Source of the DNA: Nemertoderma westbladi
Taxonomy: Eukaryota > Animalia > Xenacoelomorpha
NCBI GenBank assembly: GCA_032718475.1
Contig: JAUCBJ010007063.1
Location: 1-64,000 of the forward strand
DNA: 64,000 nucleotides
Reading direction: 5' to 3'
Position 1 is the first letter of the stretch, and each line of letters starts with the position of its first letter. A program made the position numbers and the translations under genes. The notes beneath the pieces were generated by a model, which saw nothing but the letters and a program-made list of their open reading frames with translations, ran no database searches and was not told the origin of the DNA. Below, one piece after another: positions 8,301-55,278 of the stretch.

Positions 8301-11300
8301 CATCAGCTAGGAATTGACTATACACTGCGGATATAGTTGAACCAACAGCTATCGATTCTAAAACCTCAATGCGTCGTATGCCATTACCATCCTGAAAAAC
8401 TGGAGCCTTGTTAGCTGTTGTTATTATGTCAATGATAACAATGGCACTGGTAGAAAGTGGTATAGCTCCATTATCAGTAACTTTAATAGATAGTTCATAG
8501 TAAGGAATCGTATCTTTATTGAGAAGTGAAGCGCTGTTGAGTAAGATATTTCCTCCTTTATCTACAGTAAATGTATCACCAGTATTACCTGAACTAATCA
8601 AGTATGTTAGAATTGCATTAGGAGTAAGAACTTCATCATCATCGGTACATGACAAGGTTGCGATTTTATTTCCATCTGTTGCCCCTGAAACATCTATAGA
8701 ACTATGATATACCTGTGGATCACATCTTGGATACTGATCATTAACATCACCGACAGTTATGCGCAGCTGTTTAATGGCCACTTTTTGATTGGTTGGGATT
8801 GGCATTATTGCCTGATCATGGACTGTGATCTCTAACTCATAACTCTGAACAGTTTCTCTATCCAAGGCAGATCCTAGATAAATGTAACCTGTTATTGGAT
8901 CGATATTAAATTTTGTATTTACAATAAGTACTGGTGTTCCACTTGAAAGATCTTTAAGACTGGTAATATCAAATCTTAAAATACCATCATAACCATAATC
9001 ACTATCGAAGGCAGAAACGAGTGCAATTTTAGTGTTTACAGTAGTATCTTCTGGTAATGGGTTAATGAATGTGGCATAGTATCCACTTGCTGGAACATTA
9101 GTGAACACTGGTGTGAATTCATTGACAGGTTGAACATAAATTAAAACCTTGGTTATTGTAGACATACCGACACTATCTTCTATTTGGATATCCAAGGACC
9201 ATATTGGGGGATAGCTAGCAAGAACAAGGTCGTATTCGAGGAAGTTTTTTCCACCTGTACTTACAATAATCGTACCATCATTGACACCACTGTTTAAGAA
9301 CTCGAAAATACTTGCTCCAGTTCCTCCAGTGATGGTGAATGTTAATGTATCAGAGAGGTCAGCATCATTGCATGTAGGAGATCCTAATGCAAATACAGTT
9401 GATCCATCAACTGTGCCTTCCAAAATGTCAACCTCAAACTGTTCAGATGAACATACTGGCACTGTGTCCTTTATATCCTCTATAACTAACTCGATATCTA
9501 ATGTATTAGTCTTTCCGCCATCTGTAGCTTTTATAGTAATTCCAGTATATAAATCTTTTGTCTCTCTATCGATACTTTGAGTTAGAATTAAATTATTACC
9601 AACATCATCTATTGATACAATTTTATCTGGATTAGAAGTAAACTCAAAATTGATATCGCCATGAGAGCCCATGTCTTTATCATCAACATCACCAGCACTA
9701 AAAGTGTGAATAATGGTACCAGCTACAATATTTTCGGATATATAGAACTTGTATGGATTGTTTAATATCCAAACAGGTGCAAATTCATTTAATGGCAATA
9801 CCTCAACTGTAACAAAAACCTCTGTACTGAGATAGGGTGCAATGCCATTATGATCTCTCACATCTACGGTGAGTTCATAAAGTCTTTGGTCCACAATTTC
9901 GTAGTCCATTTCAAAACCTGCTGGGTTATTGCTGACAGCAATATATTTACCATTTGCCAAAGTAAAATGAGGTGTAAGCGTGATATCTGTCCTGGTATCA
10001 GGTGTAGTAGTAGTATCAATTTTTACCTGCTTAATTATCTCATAAACAAGTGAGTTTGTTCCAAAGACTGCCGTGACATCAGCATCAGTGCAACCTGCAA
10101 TCTCTGCAACTGCAGAACCTGCAGTATTTGTATTTGCAAACACCTTGCCTTCCATCACTGATGCTGCAATATATTGAACGGGGCAAGTTGGATAATTATC
10201 ATTGACATCCTGTATAATAATCTGCAATGATGTGGGAGATGTAGATTGTACAGATTTCTTTGTAGAGGTGCTTTGATCACTGCAATCCACAATTAGAGTG
10301 ATAGTACCAGGATTAGCTTCAGCATCTAGTTCTTTGGCTACCTTAACTTCTCCACTGAGGGGATGAATGCTAAACCAATTATTGAAGTTACCAGAACTGA
10401 AAGTCATAATTACATTACCATCCAATCCACCATCCTTATCAGTGCAAGACATTGTTGCCAAATGTGTTAATCTGGTTGTATCTTCTGGCAAGGGGATTGG
10501 AGATGTTGAATAAGGGGCATTATATGAACTAATAGCCAAGACTGGAGCATCATTATTTACACTTGTAATGTCGATTTGAATAGTAATATCCCTGTATAAT
10601 GGTCCTGGAGTTAGCCCTTGGTCTTGAACCCTAACTACCCTCTTGTACGATCTAGGACCAGTATCATAATCAACTGTGAGACTACTTGTCAGTTGAATAA
10701 TCACCCCAGCTGCATTCAATTTAAATGGGTTCCACAGTCCAACTTTAGAGTAAGTGATAGCATTGTTTGGAGATGTTTTATCTCTGTCAGCGCAGTTAAG
10801 CAATGTTAAGTCAAACACGTTAATATCACTTGCTGCTGTTTGTTCTGCTAGTGTTACAACTTTATGGTAAACATCACAATGAGGATAAACATCATTAACA
10901 TCGACTATAGTCACATCAATATCCTGTTGAATAGACTTCGCTCCTGAATCTGTAGCTTTTACAGTCAGTGTGTAAGTGGGCAGAGTTGCTGCTGTTTCTA
11001 AGTCAATGGGTGAAACATTATAGATAGTTCCAGCCAGTGGATCTATAGAAAATACTGCACTAGCGGGGTCTATACTGTATGTAACATCTCCATCAACACC
11101 TTGATCATTATCCGTTGCTGCTATGGTGAGGACAGTAGTTCCTTGAGCCTTTGTCTCTGGAAAATTAACACCAGTGGGAATTGGATTCCAAACGGGAGGA
11201 TACTCATTAGAAGGATTCACACAGATATATACTAGAGCAGTTCCAGTGAGATCAGGAGAGCCACCATCTTTCACTTCTATAGTAAGATTATAAAATTTGG

Positions 11301-14300
11301 TTGCGCTCTCATAGTCAAATTTTGGTGAGCCAACAATTGATATAGTATTACCAGAAATCCCAAAGTTTCCATCAGCATTACCAGCAACAATTTGATGATT
11401 TGGTGCAAATGGACTTGTGTCTATATCAGTTGCTGTTAGAGTTATTCCAGGGACCACTACACCTGCACCCACTTCATTGACACATGATTCATATCGTGCT
11501 GGATTATATACTGGTGGTTCATCATTTACGTTCTTCAGAGTCACTGCAACAGCATGATCAACAAAGGCAACAACCCCAGTCTTCTGGTCTCTGCCTGTAA
11601 CATCCGCCAATTTCACTGTCAATGTTGTTGTTTTAGAAGCCATAGTTTCAAAGTCAATAAGTTGTGCAACTCTGATTTCACCTGTCAAACGGTCAATTTT
11701 AAATTTAGAATTGAAATTGACATCACTCACAGCCAGTGAATACTCATATGTTGGCAGACAACTACTTGAACTGCTTGCTAAACATTTTCTCCATTCAGTC
11801 TCATATGTAGCTGGAGCTGAATCAGCATCTAATATGATGGTATTTACTGGAGTATTTTCATCAAGGTTGAATACAGAAACAATATTAGCAATGGATGGTG
11901 TACTGTCTATTACATCAGTAATGAAGACATTAACTGTTGCATAGGAGGTTAACTCTCCGGATGAACCCCCATCATCATCAATGAACCCAATAACAACATC
12001 ATAGTTGTTTTTGGTGTCATAGTTAAATGGTCCTGCGGCAGTGAGTATACCTTTACCAGGTGTGGTAGCAATTGTAAATAAACTGCCACCAGCAACACCA
12101 TCCACTGACTTTATTTGGTATGCATTTACACCACCATCTGCTGTCTCTTCATCACTGCAGAAAATATCTATTGTATCAGTAGTTGAATCTTCGCGAGTTA
12201 ACAACACATAACCATCAGGAACACAAGTTGGGTTAACATCATTGGTATTTGTAACACTGATAACCACATTCATTGGGGTTGCATATTTTGGTGGATTGGC
12301 AATGTCTCTCGCTATAACCTTTACTGTATGGGATGTGTCTGTCTCATAGTCTAATTCTTTTGATAACTTTAGTTCACCAGTAAAAGGATGGATTGAAAAG
12401 TATAGAGATGTAGGAGATACTGGCTCAAGTGAAAACATGACTTTCCCATGCCACGGAGATGCATCAGAAGGTAAGTCTGGATCACTGGCTACAACTTTTA
12501 CAATTGTGGTTCCAGCTGCAGCATTCTCTGCTACAGTTGGTGTTCCTGGATTAATAATAGTTGGTGGATCTTCATTAACAGGTAACACTCTTACATTGAC
12601 AACTATATCTGTTTGTAGTGCTCCTGATGTACCTCCATCCTTAGCTCTTATTGTAATTGAATATTCTTTTGGGTCTGTTTCATAATTGAAAGCATTTTGT
12701 GGTGATAGTTGGTAATTGGATAAACCAGTCATTGAAAACTGGGGTGCTGAAAGGGCTGAAAAGGATATAACATTATTACTGTTGGTGTTATCATCTGCAT
12801 CGGAAGCTGCAAACTTATGAAATACAGCTTTTGTTGCTTCCAGAACTTCTAAATTATAAGAGTTTTCACTGAAAACAGGAGCATTGTCATTTTTATCAGT
12901 TACGGTAATGATCAAACCAATAGTAGCTGACTTGTGTACTGGCGATGAATTATCCTCAACCTGGAGGGTTAGTTTGTATGATGACTGGCTTTCACGGTCT
13001 AGTTCTACACTTGTATATACTTTCCCATTGCCGCTGTCAATATAAAAGCTATCAGAAGGAACAGGTTGTATTATACTAAATATGAGACTCCCTTCAGGTG
13101 TTCCTGCAGCATCGGAATCTGTAGCTGTTATTAATGATCCTGTTACATCAGTACCCGGTTTCTGGTTTTCATCACAATTGACTGTATAATCAGCAGTTTG
13201 AACCTTACCAGAGCCATCTTCAAATCGAGGAGTAGACTCTGGCAAGGGATTCACGTCAATAGTTACAGGTATTTTTATTGTATGAGCTGTACCTGAGCCA
13301 ATTGCATCTGTAACATCAATATTGAACACATACTGTGTTTTTGTTTCATAGTCTAAAGGAGCACCCGCTTTTAGCATGAGAGCACCTCCAATAACTTCAA
13401 ACTTAGTATTAGCACCATCAGTTGTGGGGATGCTGTATATAAATCCAGTCTTATCAACATCACCATCTAAATCTGTGCAGCTCAAATCAATAATGTTGCT
13501 TTGAGTATTAATATTCTCATCAACAGTGGCATGTACATAATTGATGCAGTTCGGAATGACATCATTGACATTTTTAATATTGACAGTATGGATTACAGAT
13601 ACTGATGATCCTCCACCATCTGTAGCCACTAAATTAAATTTTGCTGTGGTGCCAACTTCATAGTCTAAAGGTTTATCTAATGTTATTTTCCCATTATTAC
13701 AGTTTACAGCAAATTGATTTGCTGGATTTTGACTTGCAATGGAGTATACAATATTTCCATGATCACCATCATCATTATCATTTCCTGAGATAGAAAAACC
13801 ACTAAGATCGGTATGCAAAGGTTCATTTTCAGGTAAATTTATAGAAGTAGTTGAGGTAATAGCCGGGGTATCTTCATTACTAGCTATTACATTAATGATA
13901 ACAGGCATATTGAAAATCTTCACACCATCATTTACAGTAACAGAGGCTGTGATTTGACGGGCTGCAGATGCCTCATAATCAAGTTGTTTTATTAATTCTA
14001 ATTTTCCGGTTGAAGGATTGTTTGAAACCTGTAGGTAGCCAGCAGGACTCTCAGATGTAATTGAATATGTTAGAGTAGCTGCACTTTGGTCAGGATCAAC
14101 ACAACGTAAATCCGCAAATAATACCATTGGCACTGAAGTTGTAGAAGCCTCCTCTATATCTATTTCGATTGAAGAAGGATCACAGGTTGGTGCAAATTCA
14201 TTGGTGTCTACTATTGTTACAGTAAACGAATGACCAACATCAGGGTTATCGTCATCTTTCGCAACTAAGACAAGATTGTAACTAGATGTTGTTTCACAAT

Positions 14301-16543
14301 CAAGAACTTCTGGATTTATAACTACTACATCTACATTCACATCATGGGTAGACCATGTTTCGCGAATACCAAATATATCATAATCATCTTTCAGAAAGAC
14401 ATTGTTGATGAAATCAGGTGGAAGATCTGAGTCTGTTGCAGTTGCTTGGTAAACTAAAAATCCATATGTGCTATCTTCAGGTACATTATTAAGGGTCCCA
14501 CCAGTCCAGGTTGGAGGACCGTCATCTCTGGGAAGTAATGAAATGTAGGATTTTACTAAGACATAATTATTATTGTTTGACGTTTCCTTGACTACAATGA
14601 CATCTGTAAATGACATCACTCCTAAGTCCCAGTCCATAGCAGCAGCAACAACTCCAGTTTTGACGATCATTTCATTTGAGTTACTCCCTCCAAGCTGAAA
14701 CTGGGTTCCCCCAGTTGGAATAGTTAATGTGTAGGTCCATTGAGCACCTTCGCTGCATGGTATTTTGCCATTTGTCACAATAGTGCCATCTCCAGAATCT
14801 TCTGGAAGGTATCCATACACACTAAATGTGCTACATGTTGGCAAGGTTTCCAGTTCATTTGTAATAGTAATAGATATAATTTTCTCAACAGACTTTTCTC
14901 CATCTGAGAGAAGTACCTTTAGTGGTATAGGATTTACTGACAAGTCTTCAGCCACTATAGGTTTCTTCAAAGTTATTTGCCCAGATATTTCATTAATTGC
15001 AAAGAATGCCGTGGGATCACCACCAATAATTCTAAATGTTAACTCCTTTAAACCAAAACCTCCATTGTCATTATCTGATACAATGGTGTTCATTGCCGAA
15101 ACTATTTCATCACCAACAGTCTTTGCATGTTCCCCTATCGTAGGATTAGAAGGGGATGAAGTAAAAGATGGTATGAATTCATTATATGGAACAACTTCAA
15201 CTACAACGTTAGTCTGGGCTGTGTTGACAGTATCGGAAACTTGAACAACTAAGGTGTAGGTTGTGGGATTTGGAGAGGGATCATCAATATCCAATGGTAC
15301 ACTGGTTCGCAATACACCCGCAGTGGTAACTTCGAAATTAGACTTACCAGTTCCAGTTGTGGTATATGTCAATGTTCCTGGGGTTATATCGAGGTCTGTT
15401 ACTTTTAGATCAATGATATCTGTTATGAGACCTTCTCGTACTGTTCCATAGTAATAGTTCAGTTGAAAAGCTGGTGCATTATCATTTTTATCATTTAAAT
15501 TGACATTGGCAGATACAGAAGCGCTTTGATCCCCAGTGGGATTGTGACAAGTCAATGTAAGTGTGTAAGAATCAATTGTTTCTCTATCTAATGGGGCTGT
15601 AGTTGAAACCTTTCCGGTGTTATAATTTATTGAGAATTGGTCATTGCCAGCAGCAGGATCCGATGTAAGTGTCCAGTATATTTCCTTGTGTGGGGTGTAA
15701 AGGTCTGCATCAGAACAAGAAGGATTCCATGAAAGGACAGTACCAATAATGGTATCCTCATCTATTGCAACATCAGTTAGAGCAGTTGGTATGGGGGTAT
15801 TATCATTAATTGGTGCAACCACAATGTTAAGAGTAGCTGTACTTGTGAGACCTCCATCAGACACCTGGATGGTTAAATCGTAATGGAAATTTTTGGCTGA
15901 CAACTTATCATAGTCAAGCCCTGTCCGAGTAATTATCTCTGAGCCTGATATATCAAATTTGGTATCTGGAGGTATGTCATCTCCACTAATTATGGTATAG
16001 GTGAGTGGGGATCCCTCGGGATCACTGCATCTGCTATTCATATTAAATATTGTTGTACTTGAAGCCAACAAACTAGATTCGGGAAAGCCCCCCACTGCGG
16101 CAACAATATAGGCAGGAATGCATACAGGAACCTGTGTATTTCCATCTTGCCAAGTTACTTCTAATCTACGTTTATCATCATTTCCATCAGCATCAGTAAC
16201 AGTTATGGTGTATACTTGAACTGTGCCTAATGGTGCAGTAGTTGACACATCTTCCACCAAATATATATTACCACCCACAGGGTCTATTGTCAACCATTGT
16301 TTAGCTGCTGTATCCAAAGCGAAATATGCTTGATCGAATGATCCATATAGTTTCTCATCATCCGTCATCGATATTGCTGGTGTTATTGTAATCTTTGTTC
16401 CAGATAATTGACCTTCGCTAATAGTAGCTTTATATGTATTTCCATCTGATATTCCAAATACTGGTTCCTCGTCAATAATATTTTGTAAACGAATTATCAC
16501 GTTTTTAGTTGAATCAGCTTTCATCCCGGCTTCGTCTTCGACT
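5362..16543 (-). CDS. Giant exon of a very large non-classical cadherin (about 30 EC repeats; Fat/CDH23/CDHR-like)
   Basis: The 3720-aa open frame has recurring cadherin Ca-binding motifs (DxNDNxPxF, LDYE/LDRE, AxDxD, DxG). The splice acceptor TTTTTAACTATTTAG sits at 16544-16558, and the exon starts A|GTC GAA GAC GAA GCC GGG ATG, so the ORF-track Met is internal. The 3' boundary is uncertain: the last ~90 codons may not be genuine and no TM segment is present. Confidence 0.9.
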
Positions 16544-16813
16544 CTAAATAGTTAAAAATTCAAAAAATTATATTAATATTAGAGACATTGCCCTGCATAG
16601 CACACAGCACAATATTTAGTATCTCTATAGTACAGAACAGAAAAGTTGGTTTAAAAAAATAGAGAAAAGAAGGAGCCCTCTTTGAATTTGAGGAATTTTC
16701 ACGAGAATATATCTTAGTTTTGAAAATTAAGTTGAGGGAGAGTCCTTTTTTTTTTCTTTGTTGATTAAAACAAATACAGGAACTAAATCAAAACAATAAA
16801 TCCTACTGGTTTG

Positions 16814-17212: not shown

Positions 17213-19368
17213 TATGATGAGTATAGGAAGGTGTGGCCATACAGGGTGTGTAGAGTGAGAGAATGGTGTCGTATGATGAGTATAGGAAGGTGTGGCCATA
17301 CAGGGTGTGTAGAGTGAGAGAATGGTGTGGTATGATGAGTATAGGAAGCTGTGGCCATACAGGGTGTGTAGAGTGAGAGAATGGTGTGGTATGATGAGTA
17401 TAGGAAGGTGTGGCCATACAGGGTGTGTAGAGTGAGAGAATGGCGTGGTATGATGAGTATAGGAAGGTGTGGCTATACAGGGTGTGTAGAGTGAGAGAAT
17501 GGTGTGGTATGATGAGTATAGGAAGGTGTGGCCATACAGGGTGTGTAGAGTGAGAGAATGGCGTGGTATGATGAGTATAGGAAGGTGTGGCCATACAGGG
17601 TGTGTATAGAGTGAGAGAATGGTGTGGTATGATGAGTATAGGAAGGTGTAGCCATACAGGGTGTGTAGAGTGAGAGAATGGCGTGGTATGATGAGTATAG
17701 GAAGGTGTGGCCATACAGGGTGTGTAGAGTGAGAGATTGGCGTGGTATGATGAGTATAGGAAGGTGTGGCCATACAGGGTGTGTAGAGTGAGAGAATGGC
17801 GTGGTATGATGAGTATAGGAAGGTGTGGCCATACAGGGTGTGTAGAGTGAGAGAATGGTGTGCTATGATGAGTATAGGAAGGTGTGGCCATACAGGGTGT
17901 GTAGAGTGAGAGAATGGTGTGGTATGATGAGTATAGGAAGGTGTGGCCATACAGGGTGTGTAGAGTGAGAGAATGGCGTGGTATGATGAGTATAGGAAGG
18001 TGTGGCCATACAGGGTGTGTAGAGTGAGAGAATGGTGTGGTATGATGAGTATAGGAAGATGTGGCCATACAGGGTGTGTAGAGTGAGAGAATGGTGTGGT
18101 ATGATGAGTATAGGAAGGTGTGGCCATACAGGGTGTGTAGAGTGAGATAATGGCGTGGTATGATGAGTATAGGAAGGTGTGGCCATACAGGGTGTGTAGA
18201 GTGAGAGAATGGCGTGGTATGATGAGTATAGGAAGGTGTGGCCATACAGGGTGTGTAGAGTGAGAGAATGGTGTGGTATGATGAGTATAGGAAGGTGTGG
18301 CCATACAGGGTGTGTAGAGTGAGAGAATGGTGTGGTATGATGAGTATAGGAAGCTGTGGCCATACAGGGTGTGTAGAGTGAGAGAATGGCGTGGTATGAT
18401 GAGTATAGGAAGGTGTGGCCATACAGGGTGTATAGAGTGAGAGAATGGCGTGGTATCATGAGTATAGGAAGGTGTGGCCATACAGGGTGTGTAGAGTGAG
18501 AGAATGGTGTGGTATGATGAGTATAGGAAGCTGTGGCCATACAGGGTGTGTAGAGTGAGAGAATGGCGTGGTATGATGAGTATAGGAAGGTGTGGCTATA
18601 CAGGGTGTGTAGAGTGAGAGAATGGCGTGGTATGATGAGTATAGGAAGGTGTGGCCATACAGGGTGTGTAGAGTGAGAGAATGGCGTGGTATGATGAGTA
18701 TAGGAAGGTGTGGCCATACAGGGTGTGTAGAGTGAGAGAATGGTGTGGTATGATGAGTATAGGAAGGTGTGGCCATACAGGGTGTGTAGAGTGAGAGAAT
18801 GGCGTGGTATGATGAGTATAGGAAGGTGTGGCCATACAGGGTGTGTAGAGTGAGAGAATGGCGTGGTATGATGAGTATAGGAAGGTGTGGCCATACAGGG
18901 TGTATAGAGTGAGAGAATGGTGTGGTATGATGAGTATAGGAAGGTGTGGCCATACAGGGTGTGTAGAGTGAGAGAATGGTGTGGTATGATGAGTATAGGA
19001 AGGTGTGGCCATACAGGGTGTGTAGAGTGAGAGAATGGCGTGGTATGATGAGTATAGGAAGGTGTGGCCATACAGGGTGTGTAGAGTGAGAGAATGGCGT
19101 GGTATGATGAGTATAGGAAGGTGTGGCCATACAGGGTGTGTAGAGTGAGAGAATGGCGTGGTATGATGAGTATAGGAAGGTGTGGCCATACAGGGTGTGT
19201 AGAGTGAGAGAATGGTGTGGTATGATGAGTATAGGAAGGTGTGGCCATACAGGGTGTGTAGAGTGAGAGAATGGTGTGGTATGATGAGTATAGGAAGGTG
19301 TGGCCATACAGGGTGTGTAGAGTGAGAGAATGGTGTGGTATGATGAGTATAGGAAGGTGTGGCCATAC
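17213..19368 (+). repeat. 59-bp satellite, left arm (~36 units)
   Basis: Unit CATACAGGGTGTGTAGAGTGAGAGAATGGYGTGGTATGATGAGTATAGGAAGGTGTGGC, in near-identical tandem copies. Confidence 0.98.
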
Positions 19369-20648
19369 TGTAAAAGCTTCTGTGGGATATAACTGGCCCC
19401 TTTGCTTCGCAATCCAGTTTCCCCCTAGGCGCTGGAATACTCTAAAAGGGTTCTCTAACTGTATATATATTCCCCTCGCCCGCAAGGTACCGTTACAGGT
19501 GTTTTTAACGGACATAAAAGTCATTCTTCTATATACGTGTTTTAGCGGACATGGTAAGGCAAAAAACCCGCAATACGGCAAATACTTTTACACAGCTTAG
19601 CCGTGATGATTCAGATTACGACATCTAACAGCTGGTTGCTTAAATGGAAACAGCCATTGGACGCATGGTTCTTTGTTTGGCTTCAGCCAATCAGAGCGAT
19701 TTTCTCTGTCGATGTGGAGCTTTGAGCCGATCATACTGGGAGTGTTCAGTCTTACTGTTTTTTACTGATACTTTGTTGTTATTGCTGTCTAAGCCAGAAA
19801 CACCGGCTCTAGAGTTAATTGTTTTCATACTTTAAAAGAAACATTAGTAGGCTTAAATTATAGAGCGTATGACTGTTATCAGTTCAACTCAGTGCATAAC
19901 AGTGCATATCACTGTACATATCGGTTCATATCATATCTTAACCTACCGTCTTAACGTTTTGCTGTTGTCATATTTTATATCAGTTGATTGAATATTATCT
20001 GGAGAACATTTATAAAGAACCCAAATTTCCCAATTTTCTTGATACACTACAGGTTAGAGAGGCGGGTTATATATATAGCGATTGCGACTTATATTATTGT
20101 GGTGTGTATTGAATTTAATGCTATTTGATAAGCACTACATTGGTCCGTTGCTATTTTCTTTATATATGATAAAATTCATTGACGGTCGGCAAGTTAGTGA
20201 GCAGTATTGTGTGTTACCGGTAGTGTGCATGATTGTGACGGATAACTAAGCATTTCCTAAAGAATGCGCCTCATACGTGAATCTTAAGCCTTACCGACTT
20301 ACCGTTGTGATTAGTGTAAGTCATATCTCTGTTTACCTAGATAGAGCGCCACGTCCTAAAGGAACTGTTAATATTTCCCGAAAGTAAATAATATTAGTCA
20401 GAAATTAATTATTAACGATCAATCGAATAATACAATACAGTAAGCTTCACTGCAATAATAATTTAAGCCCTCAGAATCCAGTCTCCCGGGATTATCCAGC
20501 GGGTGAATGGACGCGCACTAGGCTGGCTTCTGCTAATGTTGTGTTTATTGGTATTAAATATTTGTCATCTTCTAAAGTATATTTATAAACCAAAAGACAT
20601 ATAAATTTTGGCAGGTTAAACTGCTAAAGGTCTTCAAAAGCGCGTACA
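19369..20648 (+). repeat. BEL/Pao 5' LTR
   Basis: TGTAAAAGCTTC...CGCGTACA. By eye it differs from the 3' LTR by one substitution (CCCCTCGCC vs CCCCTTGCC) and one 3-bp indel (TTTGATAAGCAC vs TTTGAGCAC). Confidence 0.97.
19685..19879 (+). promoter_or_regulatory. Candidate LTR promoter: CCAAT box, TATA-like TTTAAAAG and putative start near 19869
   Basis: AGCCAATCAG at ~19685, and TTTAAAAG at 19831-19838, about 30 nt upstream of the 11-mer complementary to the PBS position. The transcription start is inferred. Confidence 0.4.
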
Positions 20649-20659
20649 ATAACAGTCAT
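20649..20659 (+). promoter_or_regulatory. Non-tRNA primer-binding position, complementary to LTR 19869-19879 (candidate self-priming PBS)
   Basis: ATAACAGTCAT directly follows the LTR CA, with no TGG. Its reverse complement ATGACTGTTAT occurs at 19869-19879 and 34702-34712. Confidence 0.65.
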
Positions 20660-20714
20660 TGACTTTATTGCAGTAAGCAATAAAGTTGAAAGTACCGGTC
20701 AACCGGTAAACCTG

Positions 20715-20840
20715 AACCGGTACTTCTGTAGGTCAGTAGGCCCAACTGCCAGAACCGGTACTGCTGTAGGTCCGTAGGTCCAACTGCCAGAACCGGTACT
20801 TCTGTAGGTCCGTAGGCCCAACTGTCCTAACCGGTACTTC
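20715..20840 (+). repeat. ~38-bp tandem repeat (3+ copies) in the BEL leader
   Basis: AACCGGTACTTCTGTAGGTC(A/C)GTAGG(C/T)CCAACTGCCAG repeated. Confidence 0.85.
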
Positions 20841-21009
20841 CAGTATAAGTACATTAGTATTATTCGATTTTGATTATTGTATACTGGTAGGTCTTAGTAT
20901 TTAATCAGGGACTGCAGCCCTGGTTTTTTATTGAGATTTTACTCATTTCTGTCGGTTTTATTTACATGTAAGTTAATATTGAGCTGAAGACGTGTAAGTC
21001 TGCTCAGAT

Positions 21010-21590
21010 TGTTCAGATAATTGTAGGCTGAGCTGCTGTCTGACTGTTGTTGGGTTTGGAGAGATTACGGCGTGTGTAGAGTTTGTCTGATAAAGTGCCG
21101 TTAGTAAGTTGGGGCAGCCATATGCTGTAAGGTCAATCCCCTCTTAAAGAATAAGTCGTACTACCGTGTTAGAACGCATACTAACTAACTATTTCAGAAT
21201 CTGCATATACTGTAGTTTATTTAGGCTTGATCGTAGTCTGCCAGCGTTTTAGCCTGTGTTTGTTTGTGTGGTCTGTTCAGGTACCGTAATAGTTATTACT
21301 CAGATATTTTGTAGGCTGGATTGTTGTCTAGCTATTATTAGGTCTGAAGAGATTGCTGCTTGTGTAGAGTTTGTCTGATAAAGTGCCAGTTAGTAAGTTG
21401 GGGCAGTCATAACTGTAAGGTCAATCCCCTCTTAAAGAATAAGTCGTACTACCGTGTTAGAACGCATACTAACTAACCGTTTTGGAATCTGCACATACAG
21501 TAGTTTATTTAGGCTTGGTGGTAGTCTGCCAGCGTTTGGTTTGTATTTTGTTTGAGTATTCTGTACGGGTAGCGTAATATTTATTATTCA
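21010..21590 (+). repeat. ~288-bp direct duplication in the BEL leader
   Basis: TGTGTAGAGTTTGTCTGATAAAGTGCC at 21073 and 21361. Shared block CTGTAAGGTCAATCCCCTCTTAAAGAATAAGTCGTACTACCGTGTTAGAACGCATACTAACTAAC. Confidence 0.9.
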
Positions 21591-22873
21591 GAGTTTATGC
21601 GATTATTCGCAACATTCATGTCCCCAAGTTTATTCCTACAGTAATTGTGCTTGTTATACATACCGTTATAGTTAAATTAACCCCGGTACTACACGGGCTG
21701 CTTGGCGTAGGACAAGACTGGTGACTTTGTGCTCTGGTCACTCCAGCAGATGCCGTGGTTCTTTTAACTGTTCAAGTATATTTAACTACTGATTATTTGT
21801 TGTACCAGTACTTGTACCTAATTTAGGGTTTAGTGTACAGTGCTTTCCGAGAGTAATTAGTGTGTAGGCAGTATATTTGTGTTGTAAAGTGGTTGATAGG
21901 CACATTCGTTAGCTCTATTAACTTCCAGGTAGGAACACTCCGTGATACATAACGTAGTACCTATAGAGATACGGCTATAGGTCGTCAGGCGGTGGTATTT
22001 TCTTATCTGGACAGTGCAATATATTTACTACTACTTATTATTTTCAAATACCGTAGTACCCTGTCCGTTGTAATAACCAGAAATTCTAACCCTTTGTTAG
22101 ACTGGTTTGTAGACTTCCTGTAAAATTACCCTAAAAATCTCGTACGTAATATTTTGTTGTGTTTAATAAGAGATTTAATCTCACCCATATCGTAAGTAAT
22201 TTGTAGTATTAAGTAACTTAGGTAAATTAGAATTATCAGTTTTAGTGTCCCATAAATAGCACTTCACTGAGAGCGCACAGCTTCTGTGTAGTGACCCCCA
22301 GAAATAATAACATTTATTTCAAATATTGACAAAACCCATTTTAAACGGGTATATAAATATTATAAATCAACTCAAACGATTTATAAATAGTAGGCCTGCC
22401 ATACAACAACTAGGTCTCAATATCAGTTGGACTACTGCTTAAATAACGGTAATAAAGTAAGTTAAAGTAACCAAGTAACCCTAAAATATTCAGAAATTCA
22501 ATTATTCTAAAATAATTGACATACCGGTGTTTACCATAGGCTTATTATATTTATTTCTATAAATTTGAGCTGAAATCATACCGGTACTCTGTAATTAATT
22601 CTAGTTCATAATTATACTTATATATACTATCAGTGTAAGCTGTATACCGGTATTCACGATAGGCCTATTATATATTTATATATATCTGTGCTAAATTTAT
22701 ATACCGGTACTCTGTGACAAACCTAGTTTACAATACTTATATATACTATAAGTGTATACCAGTATTCTAATATACTGTAATAAATTAACGGTACTAGGCC
22801 AACGGTTATACTGAATTACTAGACTTGCTTTAACTGAAACTATAGCAGTAGACATTCAACTGTATAGCTAAAC

Positions 22874-25800
22874 ATGTCTGACACTCAGCAAAACCTGTCA
22901 GACAGTCTAATCGATACAACCATCTGTGACACAGATAGGAGTGTAGAGCGATTAAGAAAGGAGTTCAGTTCACCTCCTACTGCAAGAAAGGTCATCCCTC
23001 CAGTAGTATCAGACCCTAGGCTAATTCAACACCGTAGGTCTATCATAGGTACTCGAGCCCAAGTCAAACGGAACCAGGAAGCAGCTGTCCCACAGCAGCA
23101 ACAGCCTAGTCAAGAAACTTGTTCCCAGCGATCAGATAGCTCCAGTAGTTCGGATACTGTCGAGCTGACCCCCGAACGCGGAGTGCAGATGGCGGCTACA
23201 GCCTACTCGGACCCCCTTCTCACCCTTCCTGCCGCAGTGCTAACTACTATATTGATTGCGGTGGAGGAACATCAAGCTGATTGGGCGAGAAATAAGCGAG
23301 CGACCCAAGATAATTACGCGGGATACGCCAGGGAGGAATTGATGTCTATTGTCGAGTCACAATGGAACTTTCCCGGACCCGGACTCCCGTTAGATCTGTC
23401 CGAGGCTACTTGGGAAGATATACATAGGATGGGAGTGGCTAAAGATACGATGGATCCAGCTGTTTGGAAGAGGTCGGCAGCAGGATATGTGCAAGGGTTC
23501 TTCGGCTCTTTAGAGCGATTAGAAGAACAACTGTTTCGACAACCCCAAGGACCTCAAGAGCCGGAAGAGCTGCTTTATCAAGTACGCGAAAGAACCCTAC
23601 GTATTAGAATAATCCTATCAGCCTTTGAGGAAACTTCCAAAAGAAGACAGGACACGTCGCTGCAGGTTTCTGTTAAGACTTGGTTCCAGCGAGTAGGTCG
23701 CAAAGTGCAAGAAACGGACCAGTGGAAATCCCAGCTGTCTGAGAGACTAACTTATGAAGAACCAACCGATGCCACCCTTTCTGGAGTGGAAGGCGAAGAG
23801 ACCGCAGAGAGACCACGAACGAGAGACGCCATCGACATTTACCTATCCGACTATCAGCGATTCCTGGGAGACGAAGAGTTGAGGAGACGACTGTCTGGAC
23901 TTTCCCCCAATAGTGAAGGAACCCAGCGTGTGTTAGACTCAATCGATGCTGAGATGTTGGCGGCTAATCAAGCTGAATTTGATGAAAAACTCCGCCTCAC
24001 TAGAGTCCAAGAAGAACTAGTAAAGAAAAAACGGATAGAGGACAAAAAGGCAGTGGCAGCGGCGAAAGCGGCAGCGTCAGTAGAAGAGGCAAAAGCGGCA
24101 GCGGCAGTGGAAGCGGCAAAGGCAGTAGCAGCGGCAAAAGCAGCAGCGGCAGTGGAAAAGGCAGAAGCAAAAGCGGCAGCGGCAGCGAAAGCGGCAGCGG
24201 CAGCGAAAGCGAAAGCGGCAGAGGCAGTAGCAGAAGCAAATGCTGCAGCGACAGTGGAAGCAGCCAAAGCAGCAGCAGCAATAGCATTGGCAGATGCGGA
24301 ACAGAGAGCGTCTGAAGAGACCACCCAACTAGAGTTGGAGAATCTGCAAGAGACGCAAGACAACATAAATAAACAGTTAACTGCTAGTCACATGCAGATG
24401 ATGAGAAAATCTACTCCCAAACGCCAGGGCTATACTTCATCGGAGGAAAGCGAAACCACCGATCCTGAAGGCGGAGGAAATAGATCTCGTCTAAGCAGGC
24501 GTAGAAAAACATCTTACCGTCATAAATTGCCTGATTTGCCTCCAGCTGTTAGAAGACAACTAGCTAACACAGACTTAAGTAGTATAGAACCTACAGACCA
24601 AACTATTCATGTCAAAAGACTACCTACAATAGTTGATGAGCCTGAAATAATTAGGCCTGTCGTTCCCAAAGTCACTTCTGTGCTAGAGACCCCTGTACTT
24701 CCAGAGCTTAACTCTAAATTCCCTTTACACAGTACTACACTGCCTGTACCCAGTGGCACAGTCCATGCGAATATCCCTGTCCTGAGCATTGAGGGAGGAG
24801 TCAAAGATTTGTCTCCCGTCGTCCCGCGTCAGCCCGCTACAATGTTGGCGACTCCCGCTTCGGCGGTTGAGTGGGTAGATGAGGGACGGCGGGGGATGAA
24901 CCTCCTGCTCGGACAGATGCAGGAGACTGTCCACCAGCTTAAGGGAACAGTAAGGGAAGGTAGGGCAGAATTGCAAGAAGTGCAGCAAAGTATCGCGCTG
25001 GAATGCGACAAATTAGTCAATATACAAAAGGGCATACCAATACCCCCTGTAACATTGTGTCAACCTGTTAGGTCTGAAGTATTACATGCGCAAGGTGTGG
25101 AGCCTACACGCATCTATACTGCTAGTGAAGTAGAAACTCCTATAGCCAACCCTATTAAGGGTGATTATAAACCTGTTGTTAATGATATTCCCTATAGACC
25201 TGATAATGATCCGAGAAATTTATATACCGATAATTCGATATTAAATAACACGATGGCCCAAGAAAGCTTTACGCGTCAGATGGCTAGAACAGAAGCCCGC
25301 CAAGCGGTTAAAGTAGGAGAGATCGTCAAATTCAATGGAGACGAAATGAAATGGTTACCTTTCAACGAATATTACAAAGACAGCATACAGAACTCTGTGC
25401 TATCTAACGGAGAGAAACTTAGGTTCCTCATCAAGTGTTTGGAAGGACCTCCTAAGATAATGGCGTTAAAGTTTATTGGACATCCAGATGGATTAAGACA
25501 AGTTTGGGATACATTAAACATCAGGTATGGTAACAAAGATAACATAGCTAAGTATTTGTATGCAAAATTAGTAGCCCCCCGACACTTCCTTAGTAGCGGG
25601 ATTATAGAGTTTTCCGATGAAATTCAGGAAATCTGTAGACAATTGGACTGGTTAGGTAAGTCTCATGAATATCAGAGTTCCATGGTTATTGGAGCCGTAG
25701 TCTCTACTTTACCAAAGGGTGGAGTATGTACACGCTGGGACAAGAAAGTGTTGTACATGAATGAACAACAACGACGAAGTCCTACCATGGCGGATCTCAT

Positions 25801-28800
25801 GTCCTTCTTAGATGGTGAGGTAAAACTACAACTCATCAAGCAGTCCAGAGAGAAAACATCGGAAAATAAGGTAAGTGAGAAACCCGCTTCTAGGAGAAGA
25901 GTAACACCGGTGTGTTACACAGACGACGGCGAAAGCCAAGCTTCTCAAGAAGAAGACAGCGGGAAAGACACCGAACGATCTTACTACGTTGACAAAACCT
26001 CAAAAGATGTAAGTAAATACAAGGCTCGAAACAACGATAGGAGAGAACAGGTTGCTAAGACCCCTCCTCAGTCTCCTAACAGAATGCACCGAAGAAAACC
26101 CGAAGAAAGAACGAGAGTGCATCAAGTTACCCAAGGTAAAGTAAGTAACATAAAACTGAACTGTGCGCTGTGCGACGGGACCCACCGTTTGAGTGCGTGT
26201 GCGGAATTTCTAAAGAAATCCCTTGTAGACAGACGTACAGTTGTGTGGGACAAGCGGTTATGCTGTAATTGCCTCAGACCAGGACACCAACGGCGAACCT
26301 GTTACTCCGACATAAAGTGTGCAAAGTGTGGCGCGAAACATCACATCTTGTTACACAGTGAGTTCGAACGAGACAAACAGAGTCAGGTAAGTGAGCCCGA
26401 ACTACATGTCCAATTCAGTGATGTAAACGACACTGATCAGGAGTCTGAGATGGAAGGATTCTATACTGACGAATTCTCCGACGCCAACGAATCCTGTTAT
26501 CTAATCAATACCGCAGTGTATCGAGCACTTACTTATGAAAAGGACACCACCAATGAGTTCCCCCCAACAACTTTTGCCAAACAACCCTCTTGGAAAGCTC
26601 CAACTTCCAACGTAGGAATCAGAGAATTTCCTGTAGTGCAAGTAAGAATTCATGGTACTCACCACAGTTACATAGTGAACGCACTCCTTGATTCCGGCAG
26701 CACAGGAACATTCATAGATCAAGAATTAGCCGAAGACATCTTTGCTGGACAACCCAAATTCCGGACAAAATTGAATATGTCAGGAATTATGCAGGTTTGG
26801 AAATCTACCCTAACGGCAGATTACTACGTAGGTGTGTTGTCCACTCCCCAGGATAAGTTAGGAGTACAAGGAATAAGGTCGGTAAAAATGGTGGCTATAA
26901 AGAACTTCGCTACTACTCAAGCAGACCTTTATAATTGGGACGAGGATGAGAGCATCCAACATCTTAAGATACCTCGGTTCCAGACAGATTATCCTGGAGT
27001 GCAAATACTCATCGGCCAAAACGCGCACGAGGCGCTCGAAACATTGGAGAAACGGCCTGCTCAACCGCAGCCACTGCAAACCTATGCGGTAAGAACTAGA
27101 GTAGGTTGGTACTTTACTGGCCCTTCCCGCAGGACTCTCGAAGAGAGAATGCCACAAGAACGAGTAGATCATGTGAGCGATTGGAGCGAGGAGAGCAGTG
27201 AGGTGGACGAACTAACTGAGGGAACACCATACTCCTCAGATAACGATGACACTTATCAACTCTTCGATGAGGATAACACCATAGACTTACTTACAGAAAA
27301 CCAAACTTGGAAAGATCAGGTGAACCTATGTCAACTGATTCACCCATCGGAACCCATCGCTTACAATGACGAACTCAACGATGAGATAGAGCGCTGCAAC
27401 GCTAGAACTCGGGACGAACTAGCCGTACGATTCTTTACTCAGGAACTGGTAGAGCCCAATTCGTATGATAAGGCTCTATCGATAGAAGAAGAAAGAGCCA
27501 AGCAAATCCAGGAAACAACTACACGTTTTTTAAAAGACCAAGGTAGGTATGAAATCGGCCTCCCATTTCGAAAACGAGAACCTAGATTTATAAATAACAG
27601 ACCCTTGGCAGAGAAAAGAATCGCTCAATTACATCGACGCCTTACAGCTAATGCTTCAGCGAAAGAAATGTACCAAACTCAGCTGAAGAAATTTATAACA
27701 AAGGGATACGCGGAGCGAGTACCGGAAGGAACACCAGTGACTGAGAGAACGTATTACTTAACACATCATTACGTTCCCAAACCCGGTAAGCCCCATGAAG
27801 TACGAGTCGTATTCGATGGCTCTGCTCTATATATGGGCCAATCCCTTAATTCCGAGTTGTTACCAGGACCCAATTTACTCCAATCTTTGTTGGGAATACT
27901 TTTGAGATTAAGACAATATTCCATCGCGTTCGCTTCCGATATCGAAGGAATGTTCTTACAAGTCAAGGCGCTGGAGAGAGATAGAGACAGCCTGAGATTT
28001 CTGTGGTGGCCTGAAGGAGACCTCAACCAGAAACCGGTAGAGTACTGGATGACCATCCAGGCTTTTGGGATCATATCTAGCCCTTCCAACGCCTGCTCCG
28101 TAGTGCGAACCACTGCGAATGACAACAGAGACTCCTTCTCAAAGGAAGTGATAGACAATATAAAACGTAATATATACATGGACGACAATTTAAGCTCCCT
28201 TCCATCAGTAGAAGAAGCCATAGCTGTCGCGAAAGGAACGGTAGAGTGTTTGAAAAGAGGTGGATTTCGACTAACGAAATTCACTAGCAACTCCCGTGAG
28301 TTTCTGGAAGCCATACCGGTAGAAGACCGCGGAGCGAAAGATCTAGACTTAATAAAGGATGATCTTCCTGAAACCAAGACGCTAGGCTTGAAGTGGGACA
28401 CTGAAAGAGACATCCTGTTTTTTCAGTTAAAACAGCGAGATAATCCAGTTCGGACCAAACGGATTTGTTTAAGTATCCTGAGCACTTATTTCGACCCATT
28501 GGGATTTATTAGCCCAGTTATATTGATTGCTCGGAGTTTAGTACAACAGATGTGGCTTGAAAACCACTCATGGGACGATCCGCTTAAGGGAGAATTGTTG
28601 AAGAAATGGATGAAATGGGAAGATTCTCTACCTGCCATCGAGAACTTTATAATTTCCCGTGCATATTTTGGCCATGTTCTTCCTACGTATTCCTATCAAC
28701 TCCATGTGTTTGGAGACGCCAGCGACATGGGAATAGGTATAGTAGCATATCTGCGAGTCGAAACTCCGGATGGAATCAAGGTCGCCTTGGTTACCTCTAA

Positions 28801-29923
28801 GGCACTGATTAACAACAAGTTAAAGGTTCCTCGAGCGGAGTTAAAAGCGGCTTTATACGCTACAGCCATCGGCCGGAACGTAACGGAACAAATCGATTAC
28901 CCACTGGAGAAAACGGTTTATTGGACCGACGCTTTACTGGTGTTGGAATATCTAACCAATGAAGTCTGTCAGTTCAGCGTTTTTGTTACTAACAGGGTAG
29001 CTATTATTCTTAGTCGCACAAAGATAGATCAATGGAGACATTGCCCTGGTACGATTAATCCAGCCGATATCGCCTCCAGGGGAGCAACTCCACAGGAACT
29101 GATAGATACTCCAGATTGGTTGGGTGGACCCGACTTCCTGAGCAAGGAAGAGGACGAATGGCCTCCTCACCTTACTACGGCGGAAATTAGACAAGCCAAG
29201 GGAGCGGAGACCGTCAAACCAAAAACCCGGGCGAGTAAATCGAAGTTATTTAAACCGACTATCGATCTATCTGTATTACATGTTTCCGGAAACGATGATT
29301 TGGATCCACAATCCCTCGCTATAAATAAGTCTGTTGCGGAAATTCGAGATAGAGATTGGAAATCTGGAATACCAGACGTCTCGCAAGGAATCTCACCCCT
29401 GCTGCAGAGAGCGATGCATCACTACAGTTCCTGGAATCGGCTCTGTAAAGCCGTCACATATTTAAAGAGATGCTTTCATCATCAATACTCCAGGGCGAAG
29501 ACCACTAGTGATAACGCTCCATTGACATCTGCACAAGTTCATGTTATTAAAAACTTACCTAAATATAAGGTATCTGACAGTTTTCTAAAGGAGAAAATTA
29601 GTCACCAGGAGCATGAAGAGACCAATAAACAGATACTGAGACTCCTGCAATGCTATGAGGATTCCGAAAAGTATTTCCTGTTGTTGAGAAATCCGCAGAT
29701 GCGCTTAAGGGATCGATTCTCTAGCACAATGATAGATGGGTTAATACGTGTTGGAGGAAGGCTCACCAATGCACCCTTATCCTTTGACACTAAATTCCCC
29801 ATACTCATTAGAAATCTTGAAGTACAAATCAAGATGATTGTAGATGTTCACAGTAAGCTTTATCATGCTGGAAGAGAACGAGTTCTTAGCGAAATTCGAA
29901 CTCGCTATTATTTTGATAAGTAG
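22874..29923 (+). CDS. gag-pol: BEL/Pao Gag-Pol polyprotein (gag, protease, RT, RNase H, integrase N-terminus)
   Basis: Gag core KFNGDEMKWLPF...KLRFLIKCLEG; three knuckles CALCDGTHRLSAC, CCNCLRPGHQRRTC, CAKCGAKHHILLH; protease LLDSGS; RT SDIEGMFLQV and YMDD; RNase H LHVFGDAS, PRAELKAA, YWTDA; integrase HSKLYH. The frame breaks at ~29911-29914. Confidence 0.95.
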   Translation: MSDTQQNLSDSLIDTTICDTDRSVERLRKEFSSPPTARKVIPPVVSDPRLIQHRRSIIGTRAQVKRNQEAAVPQQQQPSQETCSQRSDSSSSSDTVELTPERGVQMAATAYSDPLLTLPAAVLTTILIAVEEHQADWARNKRATQDNYAGYAREELMSIVESQWNFPGPGLPLDLSEATWEDIHRMGVAKDTMDPAVWKRSAAGYVQGFFGSLERLEEQLFRQPQGPQEPEELLYQVRERTLRIRIILSAFEETSKRRQDTSLQVSVKTWFQRVGRKVQETDQWKSQLSERLTYEEPTDATLSGVEGEETAERPRTRDAIDIYLSDYQRFLGDEELRRRLSGLSPNSEGTQRVLDSIDAEMLAANQAEFDEKLRLTRVQEELVKKKRIEDKKAVAAAKAAASVEEAKAAAAVEAAKAVAAAKAAAAVEKAEAKAAAAAKAAAAAKAKAAEAVAEANAAATVEAAKAAAAIALADAEQRASEETTQLELENLQETQDNINKQLTASHMQMMRKSTPKRQGYTSSEESETTDPEGGGNRSRLSRRRKTSYRHKLPDLPPAVRRQLANTDLSSIEPTDQTIHVKRLPTIVDEPEIIRPVVPKVTSVLETPVLPELNSKFPLHSTTLPVPSGTVHANIPVLSIEGGVKDLSPVVPRQPATMLATPASAVEWVDEGRRGMNLLLGQMQETVHQLKGTVREGRAELQEVQQSIALECDKLVNIQKGIPIPPVTLCQPVRSEVLHAQGVEPTRIYTASEVETPIANPIKGDYKPVVNDIPYRPDNDPRNLYTDNSILNNTMAQESFTRQMARTEARQAVKVGEIVKFNGDEMKWLPFNEYYKDSIQNSVLSNGEKLRFLIKCLEGPPKIMALKFIGHPDGLRQVWDTLNIRYGNKDNIAKYLYAKLVAPRHFLSSGIIEFSDEIQEICRQLDWLGKSHEYQSSMVIGAVVSTLPKGGVCTRWDKKVLYMNEQQRRSPTMADLMSFLDGEVKLQLIKQSREKTSENKVSEKPASRRRVTPVCYTDDGESQASQEEDSGKDTERSYYVDKTSKDVSKYKARNNDRREQVAKTPPQSPNRMHRRKPEERTRVHQVTQGKVSNIKLNCALCDGTHRLSACAEFLKKSLVDRRTVVWDKRLCCNCLRPGHQRRTCYSDIKCAKCGAKHHILLHSEFERDKQSQVSEPELHVQFSDVNDTDQESEMEGFYTDEFSDANESCYLINTAVYRALTYEKDTTNEFPPTTFAKQPSWKAPTSNVGIREFPVVQVRIHGTHHSYIVNALLDSGSTGTFIDQELAEDIFAGQPKFRTKLNMSGIMQVWKSTLTADYYVGVLSTPQDKLGVQGIRSVKMVAIKNFATTQADLYNWDEDESIQHLKIPRFQTDYPGVQILIGQNAHEALETLEKRPAQPQPLQTYAVRTRVGWYFTGPSRRTLEERMPQERVDHVSDWSEESSEVDELTEGTPYSSDNDDTYQLFDEDNTIDLLTENQTWKDQVNLCQLIHPSEPIAYNDELNDEIERCNARTRDELAVRFFTQELVEPNSYDKALSIEEERAKQIQETTTRFLKDQGRYEIGLPFRKREPRFINNRPLAEKRIAQLHRRLTANASAKEMYQTQLKKFITKGYAERVPEGTPVTERTYYLTHHYVPKPGKPHEVRVVFDGSALYMGQSLNSELLPGPNLLQSLLGILLRLRQYSIAFASDIEGMFLQVKALERDRDSLRFLWWPEGDLNQKPVEYWMTIQAFGIISSPSNACSVVRTTANDNRDSFSKEVIDNIKRNIYMDDNLSSLPSVEEAIAVAKGTVECLKRGGFRLTKFTSNSREFLEAIPVEDRGAKDLDLIKDDLPETKTLGLKWDTERDILFFQLKQRDNPVRTKRICLSILSTYFDPLGFISPVILIARSLVQQMWLENHSWDDPLKGELLKKWMKWEDSLPAIENFIISRAYFGHVLPTYSYQLHVFGDASDMGIGIVAYLRVETPDGIKVALVTSKALINNKLKVPRAELKAALYATAIGRNVTEQIDYPLEKTVYWTDALLVLEYLTNEVCQFSVFVTNRVAIILSRTKIDQWRHCPGTINPADIASRGATPQELIDTPDWLGGPDFLSKEEDEWPPHLTTAEIRQAKGAETVKPKTRASKSKLFKPTIDLSVLHVSGNDDLDPQSLAINKSVAEIRDRDWKSGIPDVSQGISPLLQRAMHHYSSWNRLCKAVTYLKRCFHHQYSRAKTTSDNAPLTSAQVHVIKNLPKYKVSDSFLKEKISHQEHEETNKQILRLLQCYEDSEKYFLLLRNPQMRLRDRFSSTMIDGLIRVGGRLTNAPLSFDTKFPILIRNLEVQIKMIVDVHSKLYHAGRERVLSEIRTRYYFDK

Positions 29924-31055
29924 AGCTCTGAACCAAGTTCTTAGGAACTGCATACCCTGTAGGAAAGCATTCAGTAGGCCTTTAACACAGCGAGAGGCAG
30001 AATTACCTAGGGAACGAGTAAGCTTCTATGAACCACCTTTTACTAATACTGGTGTAGATTTATTTGGCCCTATTGAAGTATATTGTGCGAGGACTATAGT
30101 CAAGAGATGGTGTGTCATCTTCGTGTGCATGACTTGCAGAGCCATCCATCTCGATATGGTGAACGATCTATCTACCAACAGTTTCGTCTTAAGTTTACGA
30201 CGACAGATCGCTCGCTTCGGTACGAGTAATACCATGAGATCGGACAAGGGAACGAACTTCATTGGTGCCAACAACGAAATACAGGCTTACGTAAAGGACT
30301 GGAACCAAAGACAGGTGGATGACCAGCTAAGGATAACAGCGTCTAGCTGGACCTTCAACGCCGCCGACGCCCCTTGGTGGGGAGGAAGTTGGGAGAGATT
30401 AATTAGAAGTGTTAAGACCGCATTTCACTTTATAGTGCCATGCCGTGCATATCTCACCGACGAACTTTTGCGGACGTTAATGGAGGAAATAGCTGCCTAT
30501 CTCAACGAGAGACCGCTTATGCCAGTCTCATCGAGTCCCGATTCCCTGGAAGCGCTAACACCTGCGCACTTCCTACTGAAGAAACCGGTAGCCATGCTCC
30601 CACGATCGGAGATTGCCGACGGAGACGAATACTGCCGTCGAACTTGGCAACTTATGCAGTTGCTATCCCGTCGTTTCGCTGACCATTTCGAGAAACATTA
30701 CCTGCCCACACTACAACTTCGAACTAAGTGGTTTGCGCAGCAAGAAAACGTCAGCGCCGGAGATATGGTACTTATTGTAGATCCAGACCTCCCACGTAAA
30801 CGGTGGCAGACAGGTCGTATCATCAAGACCCATATCTCGGAGGATGGTTTAGTGCGTTCAGTAGAACTCATCGTTATGCGGCGTAACTTCAAGAAGCCCG
30901 GCATAATCTTTGAGACGCAACAACTCAACCGCCCAGTTGGTCGTTTATGTTTACTGGAAAGAGACAGAGAACTCTCTGGAAACTATGGAAGACAAGACAC
31001 TCTTCCCACGACCACCTCCCTAATTCCTCAAACATCTAGGGACTCCCAAACGTGA
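29912..31055 (+). CDS. pol: BEL/Pao integrase core and C-terminus (frameshifted continuation of pol)
   Basis: CIPC completes the HHCC motif; GVDLFGP, SDKGTNF and GGSWERLI form the DDE triad; GLVRSVEL and RPVGRLC are typical BEL C-terminal motifs. Confidence 0.93.
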
Positions 31056-31570
31056 TACGTCTGGAGTGGGTGTATGACTATGTTATTTATCTATTTTATT
31101 ACATTTTATATGCGAACTTTATTATGTACTTTATTATAATCGTTTTTATTCAATTTTTATTTAGTAGAATGTTATTTTAGGGATTATTTAGTAGATTAGT
31201 GCAATATATTAGTGTTTATTACGTACGTAATTACTTGCAATATATATTTAGTGCGACGGCGAGAAATAATTTTTCTCTTTCCTTACTGTCCGTAACATAT
31301 TATAAATACGTGACTACAGTAAGATGAAATACCCGTACTTCTTAAAGTACCATAAAGCCACTACTATATTCAAGTATTATTGGTAGGCAGAGTATTAGGA
31401 ATGCAAAGTTCAGATCCTCGTGTCTCGGCTAAACCAAGCTCTGGGTAGACCTTGGAAACGACTTGCCTCTTCACACTGACATTGCTTCGTGCGATATTGC
31501 TCTTCTACCTTATAACAAATAATACATATAGTAGCGTGATGTCCCTCTAACAGTAGCGTAAATCGCAAAT

Positions 31571-34190: not shown

Positions 34191-34201
34191 TCTGGGAGCG
34201 G
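34191..34201 (+). promoter_or_regulatory. Putative polypurine tract of the BEL element (weak)
   Basis: TCTGGGAGCGG immediately precedes the TG of the 3' LTR. Confidence 0.5.
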
Positions 34202-55168: not shown

Positions 55169-55278
55169 TATATTTCGGTAGCGACGTTCGCTAGCTGGAA
55201 CCTATGATACGGAACTCAACACTGCAACCGGTAGGCCTACACGGATAGGGGTACCGGTACCGGCGGTTGGATTACACA

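Follow-up and report, generated by a model that had tools for sequence, protein, structure and literature searches.

The window analysed here, a 64-kb stretch of DNA, carries a BEL/Pao LTR element of 16,110 bp on the forward strand, inserted in a 59-bp satellite array. Homogeneous satellite arrays of 59-bp and 44-bp units occupy positions 17213-19368, 35479-44083 and 44093-64000, each with a young LTR insertion. A Fat-like cadherin with 21 cadherin repeats, encoded by a single open frame of 3729 aa (5362-16551, reverse strand), adjoins the satellite, and this exon together with the long 59-bp and 44-bp satellites identifies the window as animal DNA. The window also contains a Gypsy element (54827-60293) that sits in the 44-bp satellite and has identical 333-bp LTRs and an intact 1560-aa ORF.

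The edges of the BEL/Pao element were set by its LTR pair, with CATAC at both flanks. The left target-site copy (19364-19368) lies within the 59-bp array and the satellite resumes beyond the right copy (35479-35483); this 5-bp duplication is also part of the surrounding satellite unit. By blastn of the LTR pair, the 5' LTR (TG...CA) extends over 1280 nt (19369-20648) and the 3' LTR over 1277 nt (34202-35478), the latter immediately preceded by the polypurine tract GGGAGCGG (34194-34201). A single substitution and a 3-nt indel are all that separate the two LTRs, and we therefore conclude that this copy was made recently, with its present primer-binding site (PBS) in place. Pfam searches identified DUF1759 and Peptidase_A17 (4e-36) in a gag-pol ORF of 2349 aa (22874-29923), and an integrase core and DUF5641 in an overlapping frame (29844-31055) positioned after the RT-RNase H region, as expected of BEL/Pao. 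Among the 120 matches listed, nearly all carried PF05380 plus DUF1759 and/or DUF5641. The pol frame is broken within the integrase zinc-binding region. By Pol homology, we assign the element to BEL/Pao (Belpaoviridae). An extra ORF of 368 aa precedes the 3' LTR (33017-34123), with CCHC-like motifs (CX2CX4-5HX4C) and a basic tail; Pfam found no match in it, none of envelope type, and Atlas gave weak leads to zf-CCHC proteins (score at most 0.85). Its start is overlapped by a 132-aa ORF (within 32674-33072). Both the non-coding leader (20649-22873, 2.2 kb) and the 3' spacer (31056-33016, 2 kb) are unusually long; the leader contains repeats of 38 bp and 288 bp as well as many splice-like sites.

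The ICTV profile describes Belpaoviridae as elements of 4.2-10 kb with LTRs of 0.2-1.2 kb and poorly understood replication, and gives an 18-nt PBS for tRNA-Arg or tRNA-Gly (PMC8742986), which bears out the original statement that BEL/Pao elements are normally tRNA-primed. Like these elements, the window element has LTRs, a gag-pol with PR-RT-RH-IN order, a polypurine tract and an animal host; it differs in its 16.1-kb size, its 1.28-kb LTRs, its extra ORF without envelope match and its lack of a tRNA site (PMC8742986). We treated the 18-nt PBS as a descriptive trait, the family being delimited by Pol homology.

The candidate PBS, ATAACAGTCAT (20649-20659, forward strand), directly follows the terminal CA of the 5' LTR and occurs once. 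We found that it is the exact reverse complement of an 11-mer inside the LTR, ATGACTGTTAT (19869-19879, forward strand), just as noted at the first inspection of this DNA. This candidate self-primer is preceded by T and followed by C, and its copies lie at 19869 in the 5' LTR and at 34702-34712 in the 3' LTR. The stop of the complementarity at the LTR edge was also confirmed: the match is exactly 11 nt long and shrinks to at most 7-8 nt when begun one base earlier. Likewise, a tRNA-type TGG is absent after the 5' LTR, the first TGG occurring at 20885, 236 nt on. As a control, the Gypsy element of the same window has a TGG primer site and a self-complement of at most 6 nt. A putative self-primer has been defined, in the available text of PMC6317226, as at least 10 bp that start 0-5 bp after the LTR and are complementary to the element's own 5' LTR; by that definition the window element has a putative self-primer of 11 nt at offset 0.

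We then considered how often such a match would arise by chance, for which the original estimate was about 3e-4. The figures obtained are somewhat higher: a match of at least 11 nt was found in 16 of 20,000 dinucleotide-shuffled LTRs at offset 0 (8e-4) and in 44 of 20,000 at offsets 0-5 (2e-3). Moreover, perfect inverted repeats are enriched in the LTR-leader region (19369-21000), with three of at least 11 nt versus 0.4 expected from shuffles and eight of at least 10 nt versus 1.6 expected. Because of this enrichment, the probability of a chance match may be up to about seven times higher than the shuffles indicate, and a realistic figure is nearer 1% than 0.03%. The same enrichment is what one would expect if the helix were a structural pairing of the leader, involved in packaging, dimerisation or translation control, or a coincidence, with priming left to some other small RNA such as a fragment of a host tRNA. 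The anticodon loop of tRNA-Asn, which we take to be CUGUUAA, has six bases in common with the 11-mer. Some Copia lineages are primed by half-tRNAs, according to the available text of PMC6317226. The exact register at the LTR edge argues against a structural or fortuitous helix, and the relatives described below lead us to judge this explanation unlikely.

Other copies of the element were compared in sequencing run X1 (contigs only), in which many diverged copies span the whole element. A single PBS change was present, 20657 C>T in two contigs, and a G-U pair with the primer would remain; the comparison covered the PBS side, as no contig lay over 19780-19911 and the primer-side partner base was unread. 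Contigs of other copies bridge the LTR-PBS junction with few changes (20603-20688, 20615-20692). This result, together with the recent origin indicated by the near-identical LTRs, makes it highly improbable that the PBS is a decayed or rearranged site in a dead copy, for instance one derived from a stretch of the LTR that resembles it (19897-19908), even though the pol frame is broken and that stretch, ATAACAGTGCAT, is one base longer than the PBS.

Relatives of the element were collected as 79 loci from a metagenome scan, with RT identities to the window element of about 36-45%; with 45% as the best RT identity, no close protein relative was found. Named proteins falling among them belong to cnidarians, echinoderms, molluscs, a nemertean and a fish. 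At the DNA level, nothing in these loci meaningfully matched the LTR of the window element, and 43 pattern matches in viral contigs included no relative. ARAGORN detected no tRNA in the 64-kb window or in the 38 loci scanned of the 79. The LTR end appeared to be fixed by an LTR pair in 15 relatives, and dropping L044, whose end was misplaced, left 14. We left out of the counts L011 and L043, which belong to the families of L015 and L040, and L006, L027, L028, L050 and L066, which duplicate counted families. The family counts rest on loci with a readable PBS, more than half of the 79 being unreadable and counted neither way. L027 and L028 are tandem BEL elements with a common LTR, and both units show the spliced-primer signature described below.

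In 27 of the 29 families with a readable primer site (RT identity 40-45%), the PBS is complementary to the element's own LTR, whereas L045 and L069 have TGG sites of the tRNA type. In the proposed comparison of the two 11-mers among related families, complementarity was thus kept with differing letters in 27 of 29 distant families, the other two having TGG. The 27 self-complementary families comprise 25 distinct PBS 10-mers, with matches mostly of 11-12 nt (modal length 11) at offsets 0-5; for 15 of them the LTR end was set by blind scan or by eye, without an LTR pair. Six are contiguous, as in the window element. In the other 21, the complement exists only across a predicted GT-AG splice junction inside the LTR.

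Among the 14 relatives with fixed ends, the PBS of ten matched a GTAAG...YAG junction at 10-15 nt, each equalled by 0 of 2000 random internal sites, and the corresponding introns span 71-164 nt within the LTR (for example, CAAA^TTCGAAC in L005 and CACAGTTTT^TTGAAT in L015). L033 showed a 10-nt match to a junction with a weaker donor, and L059 a contiguous 11-nt match (0 of 200 random sites). A blind scan of 62 loci gave spliced matches in 16, compared with one on the reverse strand and none in coding DNA. Where both LTRs could be read (L015, L019 and L036), the intron was present in both. L002, in which the LTR end was set by eye, has an apparent contiguous 10-nt match at offset 0, and its RT frame matches L001, one of the nearest rows to the window element. 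We also looked for a spliced primer in the window element's own LTR and rejected it, the best candidate being 7 nt long and equalled by 145 of 200 random sites. Without a usable intron, the window element groups with the contiguous kind.

The relatives also agree on how the primer is bounded. Across 26 families (L057 was left out, having the same PBS as L041), A stands at position -2 from the primer end in 25 and C is the next base in 21, while a YA dinucleotide marks the duplex start in 21, versus 9.4 expected (0 of 2000). A primer end of AC, AT or CT had been imposed in the blind-scan families; among the 12 self-complementary families whose LTR end was fixed and whose primer end was left free, 11 end in AC or AT. 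The window element has all three marks, with a T-A start and an AT|C end, and the conserved AY|C boundary hints at a possible RNase H cut where the duplex ends. This agreement of length and both boundary marks with 26 families speaks against a structural or fortuitous helix. Moreover, the 25 different PBS of the relatives cannot all be tRNA fragments, and they mostly match only their own splice junctions. Together, these comparisons make self-priming a well-supported property, as judged from sequence, of a wide BEL/Pao group.

The window element differs from its relatives in some respects. The distance from primer to LTR end is 769 nt, versus 38-348 nt in the relatives; GT precedes the duplex, versus the common AC; and a 13-bp hairpin after its PBS is not common to the relatives. 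Repeated CAGT motifs follow the primer directly both in the window (19880-19910) and in L068 (93-200), and the two elements, although not close in the tree, have the 10-mer TAACAGTGCA in common.

We next examined promoter-like motifs around the primer. A putative CCAAT box lies at 19687-19691, further upstream, as originally noted. A TATA-like motif about 30 nt upstream of the 11-mer had also been claimed; the motif is there (TTTAAAAG, 19831-19838), but its first T is 38 nt before 19869. With the usual TATA-to-start spacing of -30, this putative box would set the start near 19861, about 8 nt 5' of 19869. The YA at the duplex start favours a start at 19869 itself. Directly at the end of the primer, TCAGTT (19879-19884) resembles the Initiator consensus, and RNA initiated there would lack the primer. 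Transcription of Tf2 begins at more than one site, and RNA from one of these sites does not contain the primer, according to the available text of PMC5341516, so a downstream Initiator need not be fatal to self-priming in the window element. We infer that the RNA starts at or a few bases before 19869, at about 19855-19869. No clear peak for a conserved TATA or AT-rich box was found 5' of the relatives' primers. The sole AATAAA/ATTAAA in the LTR, a candidate poly(A) signal ATTAAA at 20553-20558, lies 3' of the primer. A location of the primer at the poly(A) site was considered and rejected: in the window and in 18 of the 27 relatives the signals are found 3' of it, and the other nine showed no signal after it.

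Predicted folding depended strongly on the RNA start. Pairing of primer with PBS was predicted at 0.78-0.83 for RNAs starting at 19861-19870, at about 0.5 for starts at 19855-19858 and at no more than 0.01 once the RNA began at 19852 or earlier, because the 12-bp helix that crosses it then forms; these values come from nested-only folding over 850 nt, which is unreliable and cannot hold both crossing helices. Three perfect inverted repeats cross the primer:PBS helix, of 12 bp (19850-19861/20458-20469), 13 bp (20421-20433/20857-20869) and 10 bp (20449-20458/20665-20674). One possibility is that they build a competing fold, which would hide the primer when the RNA is longer or when it lies in the 3' LTR. 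The PBS itself is predicted to lie open between a U5 stem-loop (20595-20633; z -1.9, 9 of 200 shuffles as good) and the 13-bp hairpin, which begins at the PBS 3' edge (20659-20689; z -4.8, 0 of 200 shuffles). A U5-IR-like stem-loop beside the PBS is associated with Tf1-type self-priming. Hairpins flanking the PBS were not consistently present across the 27 relatives.

These helices raise the question of which molecule supplies the primer. The 11-mer could prime from a short LTR transcript, a second packaged genome or the 3' LTR copy rather than being the 5' end of the very RNA that is copied; the crossing helices, the long loop of about 770 nt and the Initiator-like motif right after the primer would all fit such an arrangement, and the two LTR copies are indistinguishable at the DNA level. 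However, the prevalence of YA at the duplex start in the relatives suggests that the RNA starts there. The intron kept in both LTRs of relatives would be hard to reconcile with routine splicing of the 3' copy. No AATAAA or ATTAAA lies upstream of the primer. We consider a primer from another molecule or from the 3' LTR quite unlikely.

We therefore favour priming of the window element by the 5' end of its own RNA, with a probability of roughly 0.75. What the sequence shows is the complement of 11 nt, its position flush with the LTR edge, the absence of TGG and the same arrangement in 27 families; the start, the pairing in cells, the cleavage and the priming are inferred from Tf1 (PMC7175516) as follows. 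Transcription would begin at about 19855-19869, the 5' end of the RNA would loop back over about 770 nt, and its 11-mer would anneal to the PBS. A cut by the element's own RNase H behind ...UAU, just ahead of C19880, would leave a 3'-OH that primes minus-strand DNA at the LTR end, the first added base copying the terminal A of the LTR. The RNA piece expected on minus-strand strong-stop DNA would be AUGACUGUUAU, and RNA 5' ends would be expected at about 19855-19869 and at C19880; in relatives, spliced LTR junctions would be expected. In most relatives the LTR intron splits the primer, and splicing would assemble it. Thus, the original prediction of Tf1-style self-priming is strengthened by a wide BEL/Pao group of 27 families with complementarity in different letters, whereas its detail that the RNA begins with the primer did not fare as well, the TATA spacing pointing about 8 nt upstream. 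Assembly of the primer by splicing, as proposed for most relatives, is also foreign to Tf1.

Phylogenetic trees, in which the window element is a long branch, gave conflicting placements. The RT tree put it on the self-priming side, apart from the tRNA-type rows (99/98), but an AU test did not reject its grouping with the tRNA-type clade (p 0.585) and the integrase tree placed it outside the self-priming rows (90/78). The trees took in only two tRNA-type elements and were built without named Sailor/Sinbad, Suzu, Dan, Flow, Tas, BEL and Pao references. Given these conflicting results, shared ancestry of the self-priming trait does not follow, and this conflict counts in favour of a structural or fortuitous helix. 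The window element would be either an intron-less form of the relatives' system or a case of separate origin. On balance, we find it probable that a large, widespread animal BEL/Pao branch has given up tRNA priming and is self-primed, mostly after the spliceosome removes an intron from the 5' LTR, and that the window element, as an intron-less derivative or of independent origin, has its primer ready-made and possibly gated by the start-dependent crossing helices.

The closest known parallel is Tf1, in which the first 11 bases pair with the PBS before RNase H separates base 11 from base 12, as described in the available text of PMC7175516 and PMC4600332. Tf1 and Tf2 of S. pombe, Tj1 of S. japonicus and the Tf1/sushi and Tcn1 Ty3/gypsy elements likewise have no tRNA site and an 11-nt PBS complementary to their own LTR, as far as the available accounts describe them. 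We regard the feature of the window element as real and as working like Tf1 self-priming, outside the Tf1 group. In contrast to that group, the element has the domains of another superfamily, BEL/Pao, and Pfam found no chromodomain match in it, so it is not a Tf1/sushi (Ty3/gypsy chromovirus) member. Its loop of about 770 nt also sets it apart from Tf1, and its start and cleavage would be as reconstructed above. A primer that spans a splice junction, as in 21 of 27 relatives, has no counterpart in the available parts of the Tf1-group literature examined. Self-priming was likewise predicted from LTR-PBS complementarity alone in the TAR lineage of plant Ty1/copia (Houba, Osr-1); that lineage belongs to the Copia superfamily of plants, and no intron is described in the available text (PMC6317226).

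The original prediction had suggested that self-priming might be undescribed in BEL/Pao, and our literature search agrees, in that only Gypsy and Copia cases were found in the text available, while supplements or Repbase/GyDB entries might already note such sites. Self-priming is placed there in Tf1/sushi, Tcn1 and the Copia TAR lineage (PMC3601003, PMC4600332, PMC6317226, PMC7175516, PMC5341516, PMC13524379, PMC8556966, PMC8220671, PMC6934838, PMC5006619). The available text of the Sinbad paper (PMC554778) makes no mention of a PBS or tRNA, and that of a BEL/Pao survey (PMC3118150) none of a PBS, primer, tRNA or intron. No report of a splice-built primer in BEL/Pao was found in the openly available main text of the literature searched. 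If our reading is true, Tf1-type priming would extend to a third LTR superfamily. The splice-built primer of the relatives is the more surprising part, the window element being the plain intron-less form: in the relatives, pre-mRNA splicing and reverse transcription would be linked, for which the literature searched gave no precedent, and splicing would license reverse transcription in most families. Self-priming would also explain why PBS finders fail on many BEL elements of aquatic animals, and self-primed elements would escape control by tRNA fragments. A different arrangement is reported for the C. elegans BEL element Cer7, which is said to encode its own tRNA-like primer.

Both 11-mers of the window element (19869-19879 and 20649-20659) are nearly palindromic. 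With the X1 variant 20657 C>T, the PBS becomes a perfect palindrome around one base, and it could double as a dimerisation signal.
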